Source of the DNA: Candidatus Rokubacteria bacterium 13_1_40CM_68_15
GTDB lineage: Bacteria; Methylomirabilota; Methylomirabilia; Rokubacteriales; CSP1-6
Assembly: GCA_001917585.1 (NCBI GenBank)
Contig: MNEG01000148.1
Coordinates: 1-61,675 of the forward strand
Direction of reading: 5' to 3'
Length of the DNA stretch: 61,675 nucleotides
The notes below the pieces were generated by a model. That model was not told the origin of the DNA. It worked only from the letters and a program-made list of their open reading frames with translations, and did not search any database. Numbering within the stretch: the stretch's first letter is position 1; the number at the start of each line of letters is the position of its first letter. A program made the translations under genes and the position numbers. This document shows, piece by piece, positions 10,962 through 57,388 of the stretch.

Positions 10962-11812
10962 CGATAGACGCCTTTCCCGGCCTCGTGGATGCCGGCGCGC
11001 GTCACGTAGTCGTAGAGGTTGGCGACGTTCATGCGCATGACGCGAGGTGCGTAGCCCTCCTGCTCGACGTCCATCGGATAGCGATCCGTCATCGCGGTCA
11101 GCGTCTCGACGCACTGATCCTTCGTCAACCCGCGGTCGACGCCGCCTCGCACGTAATCGACCCACTCGCGGATGAACGCCTCCTGCTCCTTGAGGTAGCT
11201 CTTGTCGCACACCGGGCCGTGACCGGGTACCAGTGTCTGGGCGCCCACGCGGCGCAGGCGATCGAGTGCCTGCAGCCACCGCGCGGGATCGGCCTCTTGC
11301 AGCCACGTGTGGACCTTGCAGAAGATGTTGTCGCTGGTGAAGACGACGCCTTCTTCCTCGACGATCACGGCGGCCTGATACGGCGTGTGCCCGGACATGT
11401 GGACCATCCGGAACGTGTGATGGCCGACGTGCAGCGTCATCTCGTCTTCGAACGTGATGGCGGGCGCGTTCGGCCGATACCCTTCGAGCAGCTTCGGCTC
11501 GTCGGGACCGAAGCTGCCGACGCGAGCCACGTGCTCGGCGAGGTCGGTACCCAGGATGCGGCTGCGCACCCCGGCGTGGGCGATCGCGGGCACGTCGAAG
11601 AACGCATTCGACGTCCAGTGGTCGCCGTGCGGCTCGGTGTTGATGATGTAGCGCAGCCGGCCGCGGCGCTCGATCTCCGCCTTCAGGCGCAGGGTGTCGC
11701 TCGGCTTGAACGGGCCGTCGATCAGGACCAGGCCGTCCGACGTCGTGACGAGGCCGTGATTGGAGCCGCGCAGCCCGGTCTCGACGAGCACGTTGGCGGT
11801 GAGCTGTCTCAT
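10958..11812 (-). CDS. MBL-fold metallo-hydrolase
   Basis: 284 aa. NTEPHGDHW (HxHxDH-type motif), HMSGHTP, PGHGP. Confidence 0.8.
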   Translation of the reverse strand: MRQLTANVLVETGLRGSNHGLVTTSDGLVLIDGPFKPSDTLRLKAEIERRGRLRYIINTEPHGDHWTSNAFFDVPAIAHAGVRSRILGTDLAEHVARVGSFGPDEPKLLEGYRPNAPAITFEDEMTLHVGHHTFRMVHMSGHTPYQAAVIVEEEGVVFTSDNIFCKVHTWLQEADPARWLQALDRLRRVGAQTLVPGHGPVCDKSYLKEQEAFIREWVDYVRGGVDRGLTKDQCVETLTAMTDRYPMDVEQEGYAPRVMRMNVANLYDYVTRAGIHEAGKGVYR

Positions 11813-47956: not shown

Positions 47957-48799
47957 GTGCTGGGTGACGCGATCGGCGCTCGGGTGACGGTGCAATACCG
48001 CGCCGCCGCCGACGCGACCTTCCAGACGCAGTTCACGGGTGACCTGGTGATCGTGGGGACGAAGAACGCGAGCGCGACGAACAACAAGGTGTATGGGCTG
48101 GACGCCGCCACCGGGACGGTGCAGTGGACGTTCAACCCCACGGGCGCGACGGCGGTGGACGTGGTGACGGGCTGGCCGCAGGTCGTCTACGAGACGAACC
48201 GCGTGATCGTGACGACGAAGTCCAACGGCGGCACCCAGGCGAGCCTGTGGGTGCTGTCGACGATCACGGGGAGTCTGGTCCAGAGCTGGAGCTACGGGGA
48301 CATCACGATGGGGCTCGGCGGGGCGACCAACGGCACGCTCTACGTGGGGACGGCCAGCGGCAAGCTCTACGAGTTCGATCCGGTGACGCTCGGGATGGTG
48401 TGGAGCGGGCCCTACGACACGGGGACGAACAACGTGATCGTCGGCTGGGTCTGGGAGGACTGGGAGCAACGGGGACGGCTGTACTTCAGCACCACTGATG
48501 GCCATGTGTGGGCGGTGCAGACGAGTGGCGGGACCGCGCCGCCCAGCCTGGTGTGGAAGACGACGCTGAGCGGGGCGTCGGCGCCGCTCGTCCTCGAGAG
48601 TAACGGGGCGCTCTACGTGGGCGGCAGCGACGGCAAGATCCACGAGCTGCGGCTGACCGACGGCGTGGATCAGAAGCAGGCGACGATCGGGGCGGGGGCA
48701 TCGGCCGTGGGCTCGCCCACGTGGGACGCGACCAGCGGCTGGCTCTACGCTCCCACGGCCAACGGCAAGATCTGGGCTGTGCCTGCGCCGCTCCCGTAA
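47957..48799 (+). CDS. PQQ-like/BamB-like beta-propeller repeat protein, apparently lacking its N-terminus
   Basis: Repeats such as NNKVYGLDAATGTVQW, GKLYEFDPVTLGMVW and GKIHELRLTDG. No signal peptide. Only in-frame GTGs (47939, 47957, 47984) lie downstream of the divergent GGT start. Confidence 0.5.
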   Translation: MLGDAIGARVTVQYRAAADATFQTQFTGDLVIVGTKNASATNNKVYGLDAATGTVQWTFNPTGATAVDVVTGWPQVVYETNRVIVTTKSNGGTQASLWVLSTITGSLVQSWSYGDITMGLGGATNGTLYVGTASGKLYEFDPVTLGMVWSGPYDTGTNNVIVGWVWEDWEQRGRLYFSTTDGHVWAVQTSGGTAPPSLVWKTTLSGASAPLVLESNGALYVGGSDGKIHELRLTDGVDQKQATIGAGASAVGSPTWDATSGWLYAPTANGKIWAVPAPLP

Positions 48800-48809
48800 C
48801 TCCGGCGGA

Positions 48810-49211
48810 TCAGCGCCCCACGAGCTTGGCGATCGTCTCGCCGAGGTAGAACGGATCGACCGGCTTCGCCAGGAATGCGTCGAACCCGACGTCGGCGGCC
48901 TGAATCACGCTGTACCGATTGCGGTGTGCGGTGAGCGCGACCGTCGGGATGGGACCACCCTGCTGACGCCGCTTCAGCTGATCGACCAGCCACAGACCAT
49001 CCTCGTTCGGCATCGCGAGATCGCTGACGATGGCGTGGGGACGCATCGTCAGGGCGACGGCCAGGGCCTCGCGAGCGTTCGCTGCCGTTCGAACGATCGC
49101 GCCGTACCGCCTGAGCGCGATACTGAAGATCTCGAGCGAATCCGCATTGTCGTCGACGACGAGCACCACGATGCCGGTGAGATTCGGGGAATACGCGAGT
49201 GCTGTAGTCAT
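48810..49211 (-). CDS. Stand-alone response-regulator receiver domain protein
   Basis: Start MTTALAY... (ATG 49211, GGAG SD). VLVVDDNADS...IVSDLAMPNEDG...ALTAH...FLAKP. Confidence 0.8.
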   Translation of the reverse strand: MTTALAYSPNLTGIVVLVVDDNADSLEIFSIALRRYGAIVRTAANAREALAVALTMRPHAIVSDLAMPNEDGLWLVDQLKRRQQGGPIPTVALTAHRNRYSVIQAADVGFDAFLAKPVDPFYLGETIAKLVGR

Positions 49212-49386
49212 GATGACTCCTGGTGCGGAACAGAATCCGCTTCGATGTGCCGAGCGCCGCGGACGAACACGTGAAGCGTCCGAGGCTGGGGTTGCATCTC
49301 GTACCGACCCGGAGACGAGCGCATCGTTCGTCCAACGTGCGCGTGCCTCGGTCAAAAGACAATCAGAAAAGATTTTCCCAGATTTG

Positions 49387-49456: not shown

Positions 49457-49762
49457 ATGGGCGACGTCACGGGGCTGGACGCCACCTATGCGAGGGATCC
49501 CGACTTCGTCTCCCGCCGGATCGCCGACGAGGTGATCGTGTTGCCCATACGCAAGAACCTCGGGGATCTCGAGTCCATCTACACGTTGAACGAGGTGGGG
49601 GCGCGCATCTGGGAGCTCTTCGACGGACGGCGCAGCCTTCGCGAGATTCGCGACATTCTCACGAGCGAGTACGAGGTGACGGCGCAGGCGGCGACGGGGG
49701 ACCTGGCCATGTTCGTCGAGCACCTCACCGCGATCGGAGCCCTGACGGCGATGGAGCGATGA
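49457..49762 (+). CDS. PqqD-family peptide chaperone (RiPP recognition element)
   Basis: 101 aa. ...VSRRIADEVIVLP...ESIYTLNEVGARIWELFDGRRSLREIRDILTSEYEV...DLAMFVEHL is the canonical PqqD pattern. ATGA overlap with the next gene. Confidence 0.8.
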   Translation: MGDVTGLDATYARDPDFVSRRIADEVIVLPIRKNLGDLESIYTLNEVGARIWELFDGRRSLREIRDILTSEYEVTAQAATGDLAMFVEHLTAIGALTAMER

Positions 49763-50916
49763 CCCCGGCGGCCGTTCCCGCGATCGGCTACAGCCAGCTC
49801 GTCGAGCGGATCAAGCACGGCGACGGCATGGCGCACGTGCCGCTCGAGGGCAGCTGGGAGCTGACGTACCGTTGCAACCTCGCCTGCACCCACTGCTGGG
49901 TCAATCTTCCAGCCGGTGACCGCCGGGCCCGCCAGCGCGAGCTCACCGGTGACGAGATCGATCGCATCGCCGGAGAGATCGTGGACGCCGGGGGGTTGTG
50001 GCTGCTCCTGACCGGTGGTGAGATCTTCCTCCGCCCCGACTTCCTCGACATCTATCGACGGCTCAAGCGACGCGGTTTGCTCCTCACGCTCTACACGAAC
50101 GGAACGATGATCACCGAGCGGACGGCCGACCTGCTCGCGGAATACCCGCCGAGCCTCGTCGAGATCTCGCTCTACGGCATCACGCCCGGCACGTATGCGG
50201 CAGTCACCGAGGTGCCGGCCCTCGAGCGCTGTCTGCGCGGTATCCGCCTGCTTCGCGATCGCGACGTCAAGATCAGGCTCAAGAGCGTGGTGACGACCGC
50301 GAACTACGACGAGTTCCTGGACATCGCGGCCTGGGTCAAGCGCGAGTTCGGTCTGCGCTTCCGGTACGACCCGAACATCAATTTCCGCAAGATCGAGGGG
50401 CGGGAGGGAACGGCCCCGGCCAGGGTCCGGGTGCCGGCCTCGCAGGTCGTGGCCCTGGACCAGGCCCTGGACGCCGAGACCGATGATCTGCGCGGGACGT
50501 ACCAGGACATGGTCGACAAGGCCCGGCAGGGGATCGATATCCGACGCGGCAGCGGGTACGTTTTCGACTGCGGCGCCGGCCTGAACGCGTATCACATCGA
50601 CCCGTACGGCCGCCTGACCTCCTGCATGATGGTGCCGTCGATCGGCTACGACCTGCGCGAGGGCTCGTTTCGCGAGGGCTGGGACTCCTTCCTCGAGCGC
50701 GTCGTGTACCTCAAGAAGACACGGACCACGCGGTGCGACTCCTGCGCCATCTCCGGTAATTGCACGGGGTGCCCGGGGTGGTCGCTGCTCGAGCACGGCG
50801 ACCTCGAGGAACCGGTGGACTACGTCTGCGACGTCAATCACGGTCGCGCCCAGGCCTTCGGGGCGGGGGAGCTGATTTCCACGATACGCATGAAAGGAGC
50901 GCCGGTCCATGGATAA
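49759..50916 (+). CDS. Radical SAM / SPASM-domain peptide maturase
   Basis: 385 aa. CNLACTHC (Cx3Cx2C), LTGGEIFLRPD, and C-terminal auxiliary-cluster cysteines (FDCGAG..., SCMM, RCDSCAISGNCTGCPG). Confidence 0.9.
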   Translation: MTPAAVPAIGYSQLVERIKHGDGMAHVPLEGSWELTYRCNLACTHCWVNLPAGDRRARQRELTGDEIDRIAGEIVDAGGLWLLLTGGEIFLRPDFLDIYRRLKRRGLLLTLYTNGTMITERTADLLAEYPPSLVEISLYGITPGTYAAVTEVPALERCLRGIRLLRDRDVKIRLKSVVTTANYDEFLDIAAWVKREFGLRFRYDPNINFRKIEGREGTAPARVRVPASQVVALDQALDAETDDLRGTYQDMVDKARQGIDIRRGSGYVFDCGAGLNAYHIDPYGRLTSCMMVPSIGYDLREGSFREGWDSFLERVVYLKKTRTTRCDSCAISGNCTGCPGWSLLEHGDLEEPVDYVCDVNHGRAQAFGAGELISTIRMKGAPVHG

Positions 50917-51094
50917 GAGCGACGAGGCCCCGCGCAGGCCCTACACGCCCCCCACGGTCGAGCGGGTGGACATCGTCGAGAGCGAGGTCGCGCTCCAGAC
51001 GTGCAAGAAGAGCACCACGAGTACGATCAACACGAAGAACACGATCGGCAACTTCGTCTGCCCGAGCAACTGCAAGAACCGCTCGAACACCTGA
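50909..51094 (+). CDS. Candidate RiPP precursor peptide (61 aa)
   Basis: AAAGGAG SD 10 nt upstream of ATG 50909. 8-nt overlap with the rSAM stop. 59 of 61 codons end in G/C. Acidic leader MDKSDEAPRRPYTPPTVERVDIVESEVALQ plus basic core TCKKSTTSTINTKNTIGNFVCPSNCKNRSNT (3 Cys). Confidence 0.65.
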   Translation: MDKSDEAPRRPYTPPTVERVDIVESEVALQTCKKSTTSTINTKNTIGNFVCPSNCKNRSNT

Positions 51095-51960
51095 TCCCGG
51101 GAGCCGGCCTCACCGTCGGCCGATCGACGGTCGCCATCACGAACGCCGAGCGATCCGGCGACTGGGTCGTCGGTCGCCTCCACCGGCAGTTCCTGCACGT
51201 CGGTGGCGATCCGACCCTCGATCTCTCCGTCGCCCCGCTCGATCGCGGCGTCCCCGCTGACGGGGCCGTCGCCTTCGATTCCGGTCTGGGCTGGCGCGTC
51301 GTGGAGACCACCGACGGCTGGTCGTTCGTCGGCCTCAGGGCGAGTCGCGCCTATCACGCCATCGCCGTCGACCGGGAGTGGCGCACCGGCACCGTGTTTC
51401 TTCCGGCGCGCCTGCGGGCCGGCATCGCCTGTCCTTTTCCGGTCGCGTATCCGTGGGAGATGCTGCTCTTCACCTCGCTGCTCGCTCACGGCCACGGTGC
51501 GATCGTGCATGCGACTGCCGTTGTCGTCGACGGCGCGGGCTGGGTCTTCGCGGGCCCGCATCGCGCCGGGAAGAGCACGCTGGCGCGACTCTTCAAGACG
51601 CGCCCGGATGTCACCGTGCTCAACGACGACCGCGTGGCAGTGCGACACGTGCTCGGTCGATGGCACGTCTTCGGGACGCCATGGGCGGGAAGCGCGCGGC
51701 TCAACGCTGATGCATCAGCGCCGATCCGCGGCGTGTGTCTGATCCGACACGGACGCGCGACGAGACCGACGCGTCTGGCGCCGGGTCGGGCCGCCGCGGC
51801 ACTCCTGGCGCGCTGCCTCCACCCGTACTGGGAGCGCGCAGCCGCCTCGAAGCTGCTCGACACGATCGCGCGACTCGTCACCGAAGTTCCCTGCTACGAC
51901 TTTCCCTTTGCGCCCCGCCTTGGCTCGGTGCTTCGTGGACTCCAAGCGGCTGAAAGATAA
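51001..51960 (+). CDS. HPr kinase/phosphorylase-like (HprK-related) kinase
   Basis: LLAHGHGAIVHATAVVVDGAGWVFAGPHRAGKSTLARLF (P-loop) and DDRV...HVFGTPWAG resemble the HprK C-terminal kinase fold. Start uncertain: GTG 51001 overlaps the precursor ORF by 94 nt, otherwise only CTG 51091. Confidence 0.7.
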   Translation: MQEEHHEYDQHEEHDRQLRLPEQLQEPLEHLIPGAGLTVGRSTVAITNAERSGDWVVGRLHRQFLHVGGDPTLDLSVAPLDRGVPADGAVAFDSGLGWRVVETTDGWSFVGLRASRAYHAIAVDREWRTGTVFLPARLRAGIACPFPVAYPWEMLLFTSLLAHGHGAIVHATAVVVDGAGWVFAGPHRAGKSTLARLFKTRPDVTVLNDDRVAVRHVLGRWHVFGTPWAGSARLNADASAPIRGVCLIRHGRATRPTRLAPGRAAAALLARCLHPYWERAAASKLLDTIARLVTEVPCYDFPFAPRLGSVLRGLQAAER

Positions 51961-51981
51961 AGCCCTGAGGAGTCCGCATCA

Positions 51982-54900
51982 TTGACACTTCGACGGCGCG
52001 ATCTGATTTTCGAGGAGTTCTGTAAGGAGACCCTCGCTCGGGGCCTTCCGTACTGGTGGCGCCCGCGTGGTCTCAGCATGGCGCCGACGATCGATGACGG
52101 CGACCGCGTGCTGGTCGCGCCCGCTGCCCCCGAGAGCCTGAAGCCCGGTGACATCGTGAAGTTCCGGGTCGATGGCGCCTTCGTGATGCATCGTCTGGTG
52201 CGCTGCGATCGTGGCGAGGACGGAGTGCGGACGTTCGTCTTCAGGGGCGACAACGCTCCTGCCGACGATCCGCCGGTGACGGCCCTAGCGATCATCGGCC
52301 GCGCCGTCGCCGTCGAGCGCGATGGCCGCCAGCGACGGCTGGATTCGAGATTCGAGCTCTGGAGGGGACGACTGAAGATCATTCGACGCGCTTTGATCGA
52401 ACGATGGCCTGACCGGCAGGGCGGCGCTCTGGTTCTCATCGCCGCTCTGGCGGCTTTGCTCTCCCTCGGTACCTCCGCCGCTGCCGCGAAAGACTCCAGA
52501 GACTCGAGCCGATTCCAGGGACTCCAAGGACGCGAAGGGCAAGCCGCCGACGCCATCGGTCCCGACGCTCTCGGTGGTCGGGACGCCGCACGTCGGCCGC
52601 CATCCGTTCGGCGTGGCAATCGATTCGCGCCGGGCACTCGCCGTGCTCGCCAATCGCAACGACCGGACGGTGTCGGTCGTCGATCTGCTGAGCGCCACCA
52701 CGCGCGGGACGATCCTGGTGGGCCGCGGACCCGTCGGCGTCGCGATCCACGCCACCGGCGTCGCGTTCGTCACGCTCGCCCACGAAAACGCCGTGGCCGT
52801 CATCGACCGGCGCTCGGCACGCTGATTCGCAAGATACCGGTCGGTCTCCGTCCCACCGGCGTCGCCGTGGCCGGCAACGTCGCCGGCGTCTTGGCCGTGA
52901 CCGACCAGAACGACGGTGTGGTGTTCTTCCTCGACATCAACCATCCGGAAAGCCCGGTCTTCCTGCCGTCCGTCACATTGCCCGGAGGTGGTCGCGGTCG
53001 CGACGACGATGACCGCCGCCGTGGCCCCCGCGCCCGCCCGGTGGGAGTCGCCTTCGACTACGGGCCGGGGGTGAACCAGGTCGTGGTCGCCGACGAGAAC
53101 CGCAACGCGGTCCACGTCCTCAAGCTCACGGGCCAGGCCACGCTCGACAGCATCCGCTCCGTGGGCATGGGCAAGCGCCCTCAGGCGATCGCCGTCAACC
53201 CGGGCCGCGATTACGCCTTGGTCACGAGCGAGAAGGACGACGTGTTCGGCTTCACGCCGTCGTCGGGTGAAGTGACCGGCCGGGCCGAAGCCGGAAAGCG
53301 CCCACGGAGCGTCGCCATCGATCCAGAGACGTGCCGGGCCGTAGTGACGAACTCGAAGAGCAATTCCGCCTCCGTGCTGGTGGGGCCGTGCAACGTTCTC
53401 AAGATCTTCTTCCTTTCGCCGTCGACGGCGAAGGTCGGATCCGGCGCGTTTACGCTGGAGATCATCGGCAGCGGCTTCGCCGCCAACGCCCAGGTCAACT
53501 TCGGAACGCTCACGCTGGCGCCGAGCTCGGTGACTCCAGGGCGCATCCAGGTCACGGCCCCGCGGCCGCGGTGGTGACGCTCGGCAGCGTGCTCGTGACC
53601 GTGACGAATCCTCCAGCCCACGTCGGCGACCCGCCGACGGTGTCGACCACGCTCCCATTCGTCGTCAACACCGATCCGCTCAAGCTCTCTTCGGTCACCC
53701 CGAGTACCAGCGTGGCCGACGGCCTCGACCTGGCGCTCACGCTGACCGGACAGCGCATCAAGGCAGGCGCCACGGTCTTCTTCGGCGCGCCGAGCGCCAG
53801 CGGCTGCGGCGTGGAGATCGAGACCGCGTCGTCCGGCGTGCCGAGCAGCACCGTACTGCAGGCGGTCGTCCCGGGGATTCGGGCCGACGTGACCGGCGTC
53901 CACGGGACGGACCTGACCTTGCGCGGCGGCGCCTACTGCGTGCAGGTCGTCAACCCCGACGGCGAGCGGTCGAACAACGCTGCCGGTGACCATCACCAAC
54001 CCGAAGCCGACGCTCTCCAACCTGTTCCCGAGCGCGGCCGACCAGGGTAGCCCCACGCTGACGATGCTGTTGAACGGCGACGGCTTCGTCGGGACGATCG
54101 CGGGTGCTCAGATCCTTCCCACCACGGTCGTGAAGTTCAACAACGTTCCGGTCGCCGCGGTCCCAAACCAGCTCCATCCGATGGATCAGATGGTGATCAC
54201 GATTCCCAGCGCGCTGCTCGTCGGCGCCGGTGTCTTCACCGTGAGCGTGGAGAATCCAGCCATCAACGGCGCCGGCGGTGGGACCGCGTCGGCAACGTTC
54301 ACCGTCCGGACCCTGAACGCGATCCTGCCCACCAAGGTCGTGGCGATTCCCGAGGGCCAGCCCGATCACGTGGCGATGGTCGGCCATCGTCTCGGCGCCG
54401 TGGCCGTGTCCAACCAGGGTGTGGTCCGCCTCCTCGATCTGTCCAGGCTGAATTTCGACCACCACGCCCGATGCCGGCGTCGTGCTCGATCCACCCATCG
54501 TGCTGGCGGAGCCGCGCATCGGTGCGACCGGCGACATCGACGGTGATCCGGTGGCCGGGATCCTGGCCGTCGCGCTGCAGCGGGACGATGCGGTGGCCGT
54601 CGTGACGCTCCAGGGCGTCGATCCCATCACGTACGCTCCGTGTCCATGCCGGAGGACGCTGGCGCTCGGGCTCGGCTCGAGTCCTTACGGTATCGCCCTC
54701 GACGTCGCCAACGATCGCCTGGTCGTCGTGAACCAGGGGCTTCCGCCCGGTGAGCCCACCATGCCGCTCGGGTTTCCCGGCATTCTGCCGAGCCTCTCGG
54801 TGATCCGGCTCTCCTCGCTCACCGAGATCGTCAGGATCCCGCTGTACTCGGCGTTCGACCCCGACGGTCTGTTATTCTTCGCCCCGGCCCTGGTGGCGAT

Positions 54901-55477
54901 CGATCCCGGACTCAACCTGGCGGTCGTCATGGACCAGGGCGATCCCTATGGGACCAACGAGGGTGGAGTGATGGTCGTCAACCTCATGACCAACCGGGTG
55001 AGCGCGTGGTTCTCGGCGGGCACGGCCTTCTTCACGTCCGGCCTGGCGGTGGACCCGGTTCGTCATCTCGCCTTCGTCGGCAACGCCCTCGGCGACCCGA
55101 ATCAGGTTCCCGCGGACGGGCAGCCGTACCTCGGCTCGCTGACGCGCATCAACTTGAACGATCTCGCCCAGCCGCCGTTGACGGTCACGACGAACGAGTT
55201 TCCGAACGGCGTGGCCGTCGATCCGGGGACGGTGTCGACCAGGCACTCGGCGATCGTCGTGAACACGCAGAGCAACGATCTCACGGCGGTGAACGTCGAC
55301 AACCCTGCGCTGACCACCACGCTGCCCTTCGCAGCCTCGGGCGGTAACCTCGCCCTCGACATCGCCTGGCAGCCGGACGCCGTCCTCGGCCTGATCTTGA
55401 CCGGCTCCGCGATCCCTGCAGAGCTCGGCGGCAACAACGCGTTCGTCATCGGCCTCTCACCTTCGCGCCTTCCCTGA
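51982..55477 (+). pseudogene. S24/S26-type peptidase + TM + YVTN beta-propeller + IPT/TIG repeats + second propeller-like region, one long gene broken by five frame changes
   Basis: TTG 51982 with GAGGAG SD. GLSMAPTIDDGDRVLV...FRGDN peptidase block and TM helix GGALVLIAALAALLSLG. Homology then continues through frames mod1 > mod2 (~52491-52511) > mod1 (~52815) > mod0 (~53559) > mod1 (~53975) > mod2 (~54460), to stop 55477. Confidence 0.65.
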
Positions 55478-55568
55478 CGCCGCTGCGCTCATCGCCCTGG
55501 TCGGCGCCTATGCCGCCGGCCAGGGTGAGCGCTGGCAGCCGCCGGCCGATCTCGCTTCGCTGATCGCG

Positions 55569-56609
55569 GTGGCCGCGCGCCACCAGCTCACGCCGCTCTT
55601 GGGTACGGTGCTCGCGGACCGCCGGGGGGTCGACCCTGGTGCCGCGGCCGCGTTGCAGCAAGAGCGCTACTACGTCGTGCGTCGTCAGGCCCAGCTGGCC
55701 GCGCTGGCGGGGCCGTACCTGGATGCGTTGCGCGCGCGCGAGATCCCGGTGATCGTCCTCAAGGGCGGCATCCTGGCCGAGCGTTACTACCGCCGCGCCG
55801 ACGACCGACCGATGCACGACGTCGATCTCCTCGTCCGTCCCGGCGACGTGGAGAAAGCGCTGGCGGCGGCAACGGACGTTGGCCTCGAACGCTTCGACGA
55901 CGCTCACACGCTGGACTTCGACCTCCGGTTCGACACGAAGACTGTCCTGACGCGCCACCGCGACGACCTTCGCCAGCCGTCGCTCGACCTCCATTGGGCG
56001 CTCATGCGCGACTGGCTCGGCGCGAGCGGCAATGCCTGGCTCGAGACCGCGTGGCAGCGCTCGCAGCCGGCCACGTTCGCGGGGCGACCTGTGCGCTCGC
56101 TCGCGCCGCCGGATCTCCTCGTGCACGTGGTCCTCCATCTGGGCATCCAGCACGCCTTCGAGGGACTGTTGTGGTTCTGCGACGTCGCGCTGATCGCCGC
56201 GGCGCTGAACGATCGAGCCGACTGGGAAGAGGCAATCCGCGGCGCCCGCCGCCTCGGCTTCGGAGCGGCACTGGCGGTGACGCTCGACCTGCTCGACGAC
56301 CTCTTCGATATTCGCACGCCCGTGGAAGTTCGCCGCCGCCTGGGGCGGCGCTCCCCGCGCTACGCCTTGGCCCGCCATCTCGTCCGGAGCCACATCGCGC
56401 GGCTCGAGCCCCTGAGCCATCTCGAATATCTTCTGCCGCTCCTGCTCATGGACACGAGCCGGAAGGCGCTCGGCACGGCCTGGCGGCGAGTGGTACCGTC
56501 GCGTACGTGGCTCGAGCTGCGTTATCCGGAGACCCGCTGGCCCATGCACTACGTCCGCCACGGCCTGGCGACGGCGCGTTTCGCCGTCCGTACCGTGCGG
56601 GGCCGCTGA
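55569..56609 (+). CDS. Uncharacterised nucleotidyltransferase family protein (NTP_transf_5-like)
   Basis: IPVIVLKGGILAERYY...RPMHDVDLLVRPGDVEKA...LDLHWAL pattern of this family. First canonical start is GTG 55569, but the frame is open and protein-like from 55401. Confidence 0.7.
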   Translation: MAARHQLTPLLGTVLADRRGVDPGAAAALQQERYYVVRRQAQLAALAGPYLDALRAREIPVIVLKGGILAERYYRRADDRPMHDVDLLVRPGDVEKALAAATDVGLERFDDAHTLDFDLRFDTKTVLTRHRDDLRQPSLDLHWALMRDWLGASGNAWLETAWQRSQPATFAGRPVRSLAPPDLLVHVVLHLGIQHAFEGLLWFCDVALIAAALNDRADWEEAIRGARRLGFGAALAVTLDLLDDLFDIRTPVEVRRRLGRRSPRYALARHLVRSHIARLEPLSHLEYLLPLLLMDTSRKALGTAWRRVVPSRTWLELRYPETRWPMHYVRHGLATARFAVRTVRGR

Positions 56610-57388
56610 CGCGCGCCGCTCTCACCGTCGCGCTCATCGCCGCTCTCGCGCTCGGCGGCCGCTCGTCCACGGCATCCGCCGTCGCTCAGTCCGAGGTCCC
56701 GACGTACGGCGTCGAGATCGTCGGCAACCGGCCGCACGACCCCGAGGCGTTCACGCAAGGCCTCGTCTTCCACGAGGGTGTACTCTACGAGAGCACCGGG
56801 CTCCACGGCCGATCGAGCGTACGGAAGGTCGACGTCGAGACGGGCCGCGTCCTGGCCCGACGGAGCGTGCCCCGCCAGCACTTTGCCGAGGGCCTCACGA
56901 TCTTCCAGGGCCGGGTCGTTCAGCTCACGTGGCAATCACAGAAGGGCTTCGTCTACGACCTCGGCTTCCGCCTGACGCGCGAGTTTGCCTACGTCGGCGA
57001 GGGCTGGGGACTGACCCACGACGGCACGTCGCTCATCATGAGCGACGGCACCGCGCGTCTCCGCTTTCTCGATCCGGCCACGTTCGCCGTCCGCCGCGTG
57101 CTCGACGTCAGCGATGCCGGCCGTCCTGTCGAGTCGCTCAACGAGCTCGAGCTCGTGCGTGGCGAGATCTACGCGAACGTCTGGCCCACCGACTGGATCG
57201 TGCGGATCGACCCCGCCTCGGGGCGCGTCGTCGGACGCGTCGATCTCACCGGGCTCCTGGCGCCGCACGAGCGACGCGGCAACGAGGACGTGGCCAACGG
57301 CATTGCCTACGACGCGTCCGCCGATCGCCTGTTCCTCACCGGCAAGCTGTGGCCGCGACTCTACGAGGTCCGTCTCCGCCGGCGGTAA
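56507..57388 (+). CDS. Glutaminyl-peptide cyclotransferase (plant/bacterial beta-propeller type), secreted
   Basis: YGVEIVGNRPHDPEAFTQGLVFHEGVLYESTGLHGRSSVRKVD..., WGLTHDG, NELELVRGEIYANVW and ANGIAYD are typical of the family. The signal peptide begins at 56606 (CTG). The only canonical upstream start is GTG 56507. Confidence 0.75.
   Translation: MARAALSGDPLAHALRPPRPGDGAFRRPYRAGPLTRAALTVALIAALALGGRSSTASAVAQSEVPTYGVEIVGNRPHDPEAFTQGLVFHEGVLYESTGLHGRSSVRKVDVETGRVLARRSVPRQHFAEGLTIFQGRVVQLTWQSQKGFVYDLGFRLTREFAYVGEGWGLTHDGTSLIMSDGTARLRFLDPATFAVRRVLDVSDAGRPVESLNELELVRGEIYANVWPTDWIVRIDPASGRVVGRVDLTGLLAPHERRGNEDVANGIAYDASADRLFLTGKLWPRLYEVRLRRR

Follow-up and report, generated by a model that had tools for sequence, protein, structure and literature searches.

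A candidate RiPP operon with a radical SAM/SPASM enzyme, a three-cysteine precursor and a ScmC-family kinase-like protein in Candidatus Rokubacteria

A conserved five-gene cassette

The stretch of DNA described here, called the window, covers positions 1 to 61,675 (61,675 nucleotides) of contig MNEG01000148.1 from Candidatus Rokubacteria bacterium 13_1_40CM_68_15. Positions 49457-56609 probably constitute an operon for a ribosomally made, modified peptide (RiPP) and would represent a large, uncharacterised family of such systems. The conserved core comprises five genes, which encode a PqqD protein, a radical S-adenosylmethionine (rSAM) enzyme with a SPASM-type domain, a precursor peptide, an enzyme of the ScmC family, and a peptidase of the Sec11/SipW type. 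This core is found across many phyla, and the arrangement is real and beyond chance.

A preliminary description of the locus had proposed a cluster of seven genes, namely PqqD, rSAM, a 61-aa open reading frame (ORF), a P-loop kinase-like protein, an S24/S26 peptidase, an NTP_transf_5 nucleotidyltransferase, and a glutaminyl cyclase. All seven lie where it had placed them (Table 1). The set that belongs together is smaller: five genes form the core, the cyclase is lineage-specific, and the YVTN/IPT region that follows the peptidase domain is clade-specific and disrupted.

About 120 related loci made up the comparison set, and single loci are cited by their L numbers. A scan of species-representative genomes centred on the rSAM enzyme gave at least 591 related loci. 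Linkage was examined by tblastn with the window proteins in the best 80 rSAM-centred loci, and by a census with iterated hidden Markov models (HMMs) over 83 sources. Domain HMMs were chosen for the census since fusion proteins merge the peptidase, the nucleotidyltransferase, and giant surface proteins in single-linkage clustering. By tblastn, PqqD and the ScmC-like protein were each present in 74/80 loci and the S24 peptidase in 67/80. The census found ScmC in 75/83 sources, the peptidase in 63/83, and the nucleotidyltransferase in 20/83. A reverse scan that started from the ScmC-like family recovered the same cassette in Chloroflexota, Planctomycetota, Omnitrophota, and Nitrospirota. The co-occurrence that the earlier description had proposed to check in the neighbourhoods of rSAM homologues holds for the small ORF (73/81 sources) and for the kinase-like gene, but the nucleotidyltransferase accompanies them in a minority of sources.

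Two observations had been named beforehand as contrary to a RiPP-type reading, namely an rSAM enzyme of a non-peptide family, and homologous loci that lack the small ORF and the linkage between the genes. Neither was found.

Precursor peptides

The precursor ORF (GAAAGGAG Shine-Dalgarno 8 nt upstream) starts 8 nt before the end of the rSAM gene, as expected from the earlier description of an overlapping leader/core-type ORF. The window has a G+C content of about 68%, which makes third-position GC (GC3) informative on the coding frame, and the precursor ORF has a GC3 of 0.96 in its own frame. An HMM was built from 15 ORFs located in the gaps between genes. The window peptide scores 66 bits against this family HMM and is the sole match in the whole window. 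Homologues were detected in 73 of the 81 sources, without exception between the rSAM and ScmC-like genes and in the same orientation, so the small ORF is also conserved in other genomes.

The leader has the consensus K-x-Y-x-(K/P)-P-x-(V/L)-x-x-V-x-L-x-x-E-E-A-V-L-x-x, which is followed by C-K; in compact form it reads ...PYxxPxVxRVxLxxEEAVLxxCK. The core starts with C[KR] in all 69 unique cores, contains exactly three Cys in 66 of them, and with few exceptions ends 5-7 residues after the last Cys. Ser is the C-terminal residue in 65/69 and Thr in 4/69. The three Cys have a fixed spacing, and the residues between them are highly variable. A profile search of a 5.8-billion-protein collection gave 2,789 clusters that match the precursor family. 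Three Cys and a tail of 5 residues are common to all of the best 120 clusters, of which 119 terminate in Gly-Ser. Every source-given name among these 120 is 'hypothetical protein', and none has a Pfam domain. An NCBIfam search of five family precursors gave no family.

The window peptide (...EVALQTCKKSTTSTINTKNTIGNFVCPSNCKNRSNT), with its Cys at C32, C51, and C55, is a member of a divergent sub-clade ending in Thr. Its core codons differ from those of the close relative L085 by 7 synonymous and 2 non-synonymous changes, and by this codon comparison the core is under purifying selection. Several loci have two or three tandem precursors (L004, 11089-11932; L012, 4936-5355; L003, 2951-3366; L007, 4167-4523). 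The Cys core is absent in two of the three precursors of L004, and the precursors of L012 have much longer cores that end in Gly-Thr.

Leader recognition and the radical SAM step

The stop codon of the PqqD gene and the start codon of the rSAM gene overlap in an ATGA at 49759-49762. This agrees with the earlier claim of a PqqD-type RiPP recognition element (RRE) coupled to a Cx3Cx2C rSAM enzyme. The CX3CX2C motif corresponds to C39/C43/C46 and is invariant in 17 homologues. Seven more Cys of SPASM type are invariant in the same homologues, at C271, G284-x4-C289, C326-x2-C329-x5-C335-x2-C338, and C357. The Cys-rich, SPASM-like C-terminus noted earlier is therefore present, although the Pfam SPASM model itself does not match the enzyme at E<0.01.

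Comparison with NCBIfam gives full-length alignments with MftC, AlbA, and GeoRSP_rSAM, and a C-terminal alignment with PapB; MftC is among the best full-length matches. No family threshold is reached in NCBIfam. The curated maturase families (AlbA, StsB, SkfB, PapB, SCIFF-type) give 49-65 bits against cut-offs of 300-850, which places the enzyme outside all of them. The closest solved structures are SkfB, PqqE, CteB, and SuiB, which are peptide modifiers.

A non-peptide rSAM enzyme (AhbD/NirJ/MoaA) was considered and rejected. The matches to AhbD/NirJ are confined to the SAM core and reach 94 bits against cut-offs of at least 500, and no non-peptide family reaches its threshold. An anti-phage function was rejected as well, and PADLOC shows only a generic likeness of the rSAM core to viperins.

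More than 2,000 homologues of the rSAM enzyme were detected at E<=1e-10. In many of them the C-terminus is extended by about 60 aa that include two Cys-rich motifs (DCE(Y/C)C(A/E)GG ... GCGSGCGSCG), for example in L008, L035, L040, and many loci of Acidobacteriota and Polyangia (around 11045-11260). The window enzyme does not have this extension.

The ScmC-family protein

The protein encoded after the precursor had been described as an HprK-like kinase. The likeness to HprK/P holds for the catalytic core motifs, and the family assignment needs correction. The protein has no Pfam match in the local library and a marginal NCBIfam match to HprK_rel_B (E=0.0025). PF27840 (ScmC) is carried by its 99%-identical database twin P0121 and by all close homologues. 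Hpr_kinase_C (PF07475) has no significant match in the window protein and only weak matches in 8/13 homologues, with a best E of 0.0027. By these sequence relationships the protein is assigned to the Pfam ScmC family and is not a clear member of Hpr_kinase_C.

The AlphaFold (AF2) model of the protein has a pLDDT of 85.7 and a two-domain fold of the phosphoenolpyruvate (PEP)-carboxykinase/HprK type. The top fold matches are PEP carboxykinases, with a TM-score of about 0.4. The family profile aligns with L. casei HprK/P only over the catalytic His, Walker A (GxxGxGKS), and DDR. The alignment by hhalign with a lasso-type HprK from Rossellomorea covers the same core at 93.5% probability. The part that can be aligned with HprK/P or a lasso-type kinase extends over about 55 residues around the P-loop. 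H170, G185-T193, D209-R211, and GTPW are invariant or nearly so in the family.

The GTG at 51001 is the sole canonical start codon of the ORF. Residues 1-31 read from this codon are disordered in the model, and the homologues begin at the equivalent of about 51100. The functional start probably lies near 51091-51100, as judged from the homologues. ATG, GTG, and TTG are absent from this position in the window (51088-51103) and in L085 (2866-2885); L089 (1496-1510) has a GTG there. A CTG overlaps the last codon and the stop of the precursor gene (ACCTGA) in both the window and L085. This sequence context suggests termination-reinitiation coupling with the precursor gene, or a non-canonical start.

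A sister cassette without the rSAM gene is present in cultured Bacillales, for example Rossellomorea vietnamensis, Mesobacillus boroniphilus, and several Paenibacillus species (L117, 5605-10349; L121; L122; L123; L124; L128, 5296-9430). In addition to a small ORF and a ScmC-like gene, it contains PqqD, a Sec11-like peptidase, an ABC transporter, and NTP_transf_5. Homology of the ScmC-like protein to the window family extends over its full length (E=1.8e-14). The candidate precursors (...VLxxQPxxFETAQSWNxGxG..., with a tail rich in G/N/P/K) contain neither Cys nor a C-terminal Ser. Because the rSAM-less cassette has the same set of genes, ScmC, PqqD, peptidase, and nucleotidyltransferase form an autonomous module, and the rSAM enzyme is an addition in the window family. 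In L117 the sister cassette adjoins a lasso-type set of a Hpr_kinase_C-like kinase, B2, NTP_transf_5, and an ABC transporter.

The ScmC-family protein may have a function other than that of a peptide kinase, which is considered possible and rather unlikely. As an ATP-dependent accessory it could serve as a scaffold or chaperone or as a phosphorylase, or it could activate the C-terminal carboxylate or a different residue ahead of cyclisation or elimination. The invariant C-terminal Ser/Thr of the precursor would then be a determinant for the rSAM enzyme or the peptidase. The short alignable region around the P-loop, the PEP carboxykinases as top fold matches at a TM-score of about 0.4, and the sister candidate precursors without C-terminal Ser are in line with such functions. 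HprK/P itself is a bifunctional kinase and phosphorylase, which also fits them. Peptide phosphorylation is nevertheless favoured by the combination of His, Walker A, and DD(R) known from HprK/P, which is invariant in the family, and by the co-occurrence of NTP_transf_5, which acts after phosphorylation in lasso systems. The equivalent DD pair is needed for the activity of PsmK (PMC6993621).

The Sec11-like peptidase

The peptidase domain matches Peptidase_S24 with 34 bits and the archaeal-type signal peptidase I model TIGR02228 with 44.5 bits. The TIGR02228 cut-off is 51.85 bits, and the window domain is below it whereas the homologue in L065 is above it with 65.3 bits. The motifs GxSMxP, HR, and GD are invariant, with S32, H70, and D90 as the corresponding residues. 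The peptidase profile matches human SEC11C (E=7e-12) and SEC11A (E=1e-10) with the Ser, His, and Asp motifs aligned.

No hydrophobic segment is found ahead of the catalytic Ser, and an N-terminal membrane anchor is thus lacking. The domain continues in frame into a hydrophobic helix in the window and in L085. The peptidase is predicted to be cytoplasmic because the domain precedes this transmembrane helix.

In other loci the domain is fused to different partners. NTP_transf_5 fusions occur in L003 (4261-5868), L080 (5177-6874), L094, L098, and L100, and GNAT fusions in L005, L006, and L084. In many Acidobacteriota (L016-L071) the peptidase is fused to surface proteins of 2,000-2,800 aa with a Peptidase_C25 domain.

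Proposed maturation pathway

The PqqD protein would bind the leader and present the core to the rSAM/SPASM enzyme. This enzyme may then act on the core at, or by way of, the three Cys, and thioether cross-links of the sacti/ranthipeptide type would be the most likely outcome. The ScmC-family enzyme would use ATP to phosphorylate a hydroxyl group of the peptide, and the top candidate is the invariant C-terminal Ser/Thr (Thr61 here). Where NTP_transf_5 is present, as in the window, it could decorate the phosphate or the hydroxyl. The peptidase domain is predicted to remove the leader near the C-K junction at the cytoplasmic face of the membrane, where the following helix would tether it.

Several points weigh against this pathway. 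All steps after leader binding by PqqD rest on analogy with other systems. The rSAM reaction could be other than thioether formation because the enzyme is far below all curated thresholds, including those of known thioether synthases. The window ScmC-like protein lacks a significant Hpr_kinase_C match and a canonical codon at its probable start. The C-terminal Ser/Thr may serve the rSAM step and not the kinase because the sister candidate precursors, which also have no Cys, lack a C-terminal Ser. One gene of the operon, the YVTN/IPT gene, is broken in the window, and no transporter or immunity gene is conserved among the loci.

The lack of a conserved exporter or immunity gene also bears on the destination of the product. 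The peptide could mature to a product used inside the cell or for housekeeping, such as a peptide-derived cofactor or a metal- or redox-active peptide in the manner of PQQ or mycofactocin, rather than to a natural product for secretion. The position of the cassette in a conserved, syntenic, core-like region of the clade, the extremely uniform core topology across phyla, and the place of MftC among the top full-length matches of the rSAM enzyme would suit an intracellular product. This is judged improbable, since the variable residues between the Cys and the two or three different precursors in several loci resemble secreted RiPPs and not cofactor precursors. The peptidase is, moreover, membrane-tethered and often fused to large surface proteins, and the rSAM-less sister cassette has an ABC exporter.

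The complete proposal joins these elements and is put forward tentatively, as possible and open to doubt. It would comprise a new class of RiPPs, very widespread in uncultivated phyla of soil and sediment (Acidobacteriota, Rokubacteria-like, Myxococcota, Nitrospirota, Desulfobacterota, Omnitrophota, Chloroflexota, and others), in which a new rSAM/SPASM family cross-links a three-Cys core. ScmC enzymes would act as RRE-dependent peptide kinases on the invariant C-terminal Ser/Thr, the phosphate would be optionally decorated by NTP_transf_5, and leader removal would fall to a cytoplasmic Sec11-like peptidase of a type undescribed for RiPPs.

If this chemistry is true, the family is among the larger untouched RiPP families, with its 2,789 precursor clusters and at least 591 loci. 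A function would be provided for the ScmC family and for cassettes of the SynChlorMet type, which have been 'conserved hypothetical' since their definition. Radical-SAM cross-linking would be joined to phosphorylation-based tailoring, which has so far been described for lasso peptides only, and a signal-peptidase-type enzyme would be added to the known leader peptidases. The rSAM-less cassette of cultured Bacillales offers a tractable entry to the kinase, peptidase, and nucleotidyltransferase module.

Relation to known systems

SynChlorMet (SCM): The SCM system (ScmC TIGR04249, ScmD TIGR04248, ScmE TIGR04250, ScmF TIGR04251) shares with the window a PqqD homologue, rSAM/SPASM, and a P-loop protein assigned to the Pfam ScmC family. 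It has two rSAM/SPASM genes (ScmE and ScmF), whereas the window has one. The window PqqD protein scores 25.5 bits against the ScmD cut-off of 100, and the window rSAM enzyme scores 72.5 and 57.9 bits against the ScmE and ScmF cut-offs of 400. The window ScmC-family protein does not match TIGR04249 at E<0.01, and its homologues score 25-32 bits against a cut-off of 125. The window family differs further in having a defined precursor and an obligatory Sec11-like peptidase. To our knowledge, SynChlorMet and the window family are known solely from comparative genomics, and no precursor has been identified for SCM.

The set of PqqD, rSAM/SPASM, and kinase-like protein has already been catalogued as SynChlorMet because the 'HprK-like' protein belongs to the ScmC family. 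By sequence comparison, the combination of toolkits is thus present in bioinformatic catalogues as ScmC/SynChlorMet, and the window family with its single rSAM gene fails all four SCM thresholds. The earlier statement that the two toolkits were unknown together is overstated in view of SynChlorMet, a curated and uncharacterised set of PqqD, rSAM/SPASM, and ScmC, and of the likewise curated HprK-related kinase B. It holds for characterised products, none of which was found to combine both toolkits in the literature covered. A description of the cassette was not found in full-text literature, where only lasso-peptide papers were retrieved; this is weak evidence, as most subscription journals are outside the coverage.

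GeoRSP and HprK-related kinase B: The PqqD protein, the rSAM enzyme (58 bits over its full length), and the kinase-like protein show weak matches to TIGR04302, TIGR04303, and TIGR04355. The respective cut-offs are 100, 400, and 200 bits, and all the matches fall well short of them. TIGR04355 presumably belongs together with GeoRSP.

Sactipeptides and ranthipeptides: The systems of AlbA, SkfB, CteB, and PapB have in common with the window a CX3CX2C rSAM enzyme, a 7-Cys SPASM region, a PqqD-type RRE, and an adjacent Cys-containing precursor. The RRE of the window is a separate protein, and the window enzyme reaches 49-65 bits where these families have cut-offs of 340-850. The window cassette differs by the addition of a kinase-like enzyme and a predicted signal-peptidase-type leader peptidase.

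Phosphorylated lasso peptides: The systems of paeninodin and pseudomycoidin (PsmK/PsmN) resemble the window in an RRE-dependent pathway, a kinase or kinase-like protein of the HprK/PEPCK P-loop superfamily with a His, P-loop, and DD core, and a PF14907 nucleotidyltransferase. The precursors of both end in a hydroxyl amino acid, which is Thr in the window. The defining cyclase and B2 protease are lacking in the window cluster, as is an acidic residue in the core for the isopeptide ring. The window kinase-like protein belongs to the ScmC family and is not a clear Hpr_kinase_C member, and the cluster instead has rSAM/SPASM and a three-Cys core. The C-terminal Ser of pseudomycoidin is phosphorylated by the HprK-type PsmK, whose DD pair is essential, and PsmN of the nucleotidyltransferase family is needed for a hexose on the phosphate (PMC6993621).

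SEC11/SipW signal peptidase I (MEROPS S26B): These enzymes share the Ser (GxSMxP), His (HR), and Asp (GD) motifs with the window domain, for which TIGR02228 is the best NCBIfam match. The window domain differs in having no N-terminal anchor, in being predicted to be cytoplasmic, and in its location inside a RiPP cassette. In the window family the domain is fused, depending on the lineage, to a nucleotidyltransferase, GNAT, or very large surface proteins.

Accessory genes and integrity of the operon

NTP_transf_5: This gene had been listed as a cluster member, and its presence is clear (PF14907). It is an optional accessory of the system. With the window protein as query, tblastn detected it in 15/80 loci, fewer than the sources found by iterated HMM.

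Glutaminyl cyclase: No cyclase was found near the rSAM gene by tblastn in the 80 loci, and the iterated HMM found it in 1/83 sources, which is the window itself. In L081 and L082, GGT lies upstream and the nucleotidyltransferase, Meth_synt_2, and NYN_YacP lie downstream, as in the window synteny. The cyclase is a lineage-specific insertion because the nucleotidyltransferase directly precedes Meth_synt_2 in these two loci. The region 56480-57388 encodes a signal-like sequence (LTRAALTVALIAALALGG...ASA) with a possible twin-arginine motif (FRRPYRAG...). The 5' end of the gene probably overlaps the nucleotidyltransferase gene because there is no ATG, GTG, or TTG at the signal peptide. By gene order the cyclase is probably an unrelated neighbour, and its earlier inclusion in the cluster cannot be upheld.

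It is doubtful that the cyclase belongs to the pathway in the window lineage, where cleavage at VAL|QTCKK would expose a Gln for conversion to pyroglutamate. The cyclase gene is co-directional with and abuts or overlaps the nucleotidyltransferase gene, its product has a signal-like sequence, and the precursors of the window sub-clade have a Gln two residues before the first Cys. The L003 precursor also contains Gln, however, and L003 has no cyclase. The cyclase is missing at every other locus examined, the nucleotidyltransferase stands directly before Meth_synt_2 in relatives, and the VAL|QTCKK cleavage site is hypothetical.

YVTN/IPT region: The surface-protein region downstream of the peptidase can be read only with at least five frame changes in the GC3 frame plot, near 52500, 52815, 53560, 53975, and 54445. 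L001, L081, and L082 each encode the orthologue in one ORF, with lengths of 964-988 aa. In tblastn with the intact 982- and 988-aa orthologues (L001, L081), the window region is split over three frames. The earlier account of a membrane-anchored peptidase fused to YVTN/IPT modules is accurate as far as the helix, into which the peptidase reads in frame, but not for the broken part beyond it. Homopolymer sequencing errors were considered as the cause and are not supported: a short C-run is present at one of the five junctions, the other four are outside homopolymers, and no other long ORF of the window is broken. The same observations make a recent pseudogene the likelier state of this gene, with sequencing error less probable and misassembly as another possibility. 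From the comparison with other loci it is a clade-specific accessory outside the conserved core.

The presence of a broken gene with intact orthologues, together with the missing canonical start of the ScmC-like gene, might indicate that the operon is decaying and non-functional in the window organism. This is very unlikely. The five core genes have unbroken frames and a strong GC3 signal, and the precursor core is under purifying selection relative to L085. The disrupted gene lies outside the conserved core. The absent start codon is probably tolerated, for example by use of the CTG over the precursor stop, because L085 shows the same situation.

Genomic context

Table 1. Features of the candidate RiPP operon and the adjoining cyclase gene in the window (G+C about 68%).
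Feature	Positions	Strand	Evidence
PqqD-family stand-alone RiPP recognition element, 101 aa	49457..49762	+	Pfam PqqD 58.4 bits
Radical SAM enzyme with SPASM-type C-terminal domain, 385 aa	49759..50916	+	Radical_SAM 78.6 bits
Precursor peptide gene, 61 aa; leader about residues 1-31, core CKKSTTSTINTKNTIGNFVCPSNCKNRSNT	50909..51094	+	Shine-Dalgarno, GC3, family HMM
ScmC-family (PF27840) P-loop kinase-like protein	51001..51960	+	99%-identical P0121, AF2 model, motifs
Sec11/SipW-type (S26B) signal-peptidase-like domain; TTG start, Shine-Dalgarno GAGGAG	51982..52404	+	Peptidase_S24, TIGR02228
Hydrophobic transmembrane/signal-like helix GGALVLIAALAALLSLGTSAAAA, in frame with the peptidase domain	52420..52490	+	Translation
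YVTN / IPT-TIG / beta-propeller surface-protein region, disrupted	52500..55477	+	GC3 plot, tblastn with orthologues
NTP_transf_5 (PF14907) nucleotidyltransferase-fold enzyme, accessory	55569..56609	+	144.9 bits
Secreted glutaminyl cyclase (Glu_cyclase_2), non-conserved neighbour	56600..57388	+	322 bits

A lasso cyclase (Asn-synthetase-like) and a B2 transglutaminase-like protease are absent from the cluster, as had been stated before, and also from the flanking genes between 40094 and 59746. Rfam gave no match at E<=0.1, and promoter- and terminator-like sites are not more frequent than in shuffled sequence.

The Desulfobacterota-like locus L084 (5516-20207) has the cassette inside an exopolysaccharide locus with glycosyltransferases, Poly_export, Wzz, Wzy_C, and BBP2_2. 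In the window clade, the cassette is located in a conserved order of genes, with Peptidase_M1 and GGT on one side and Meth_synt_2, NYN_YacP, and SNase on the other. A PQQ-like beta-propeller gene (47990-48799) and a single-domain response regulator (48810-49214, minus strand) are encoded upstream of the operon. The response-regulator gene is divergent to the operon and separated from it by an intergenic gap of about 240 nt with low GC3. Homologues of the beta-propeller gene are likewise located upstream in L001 and L002, and the response regulator is found in the same position in L085.

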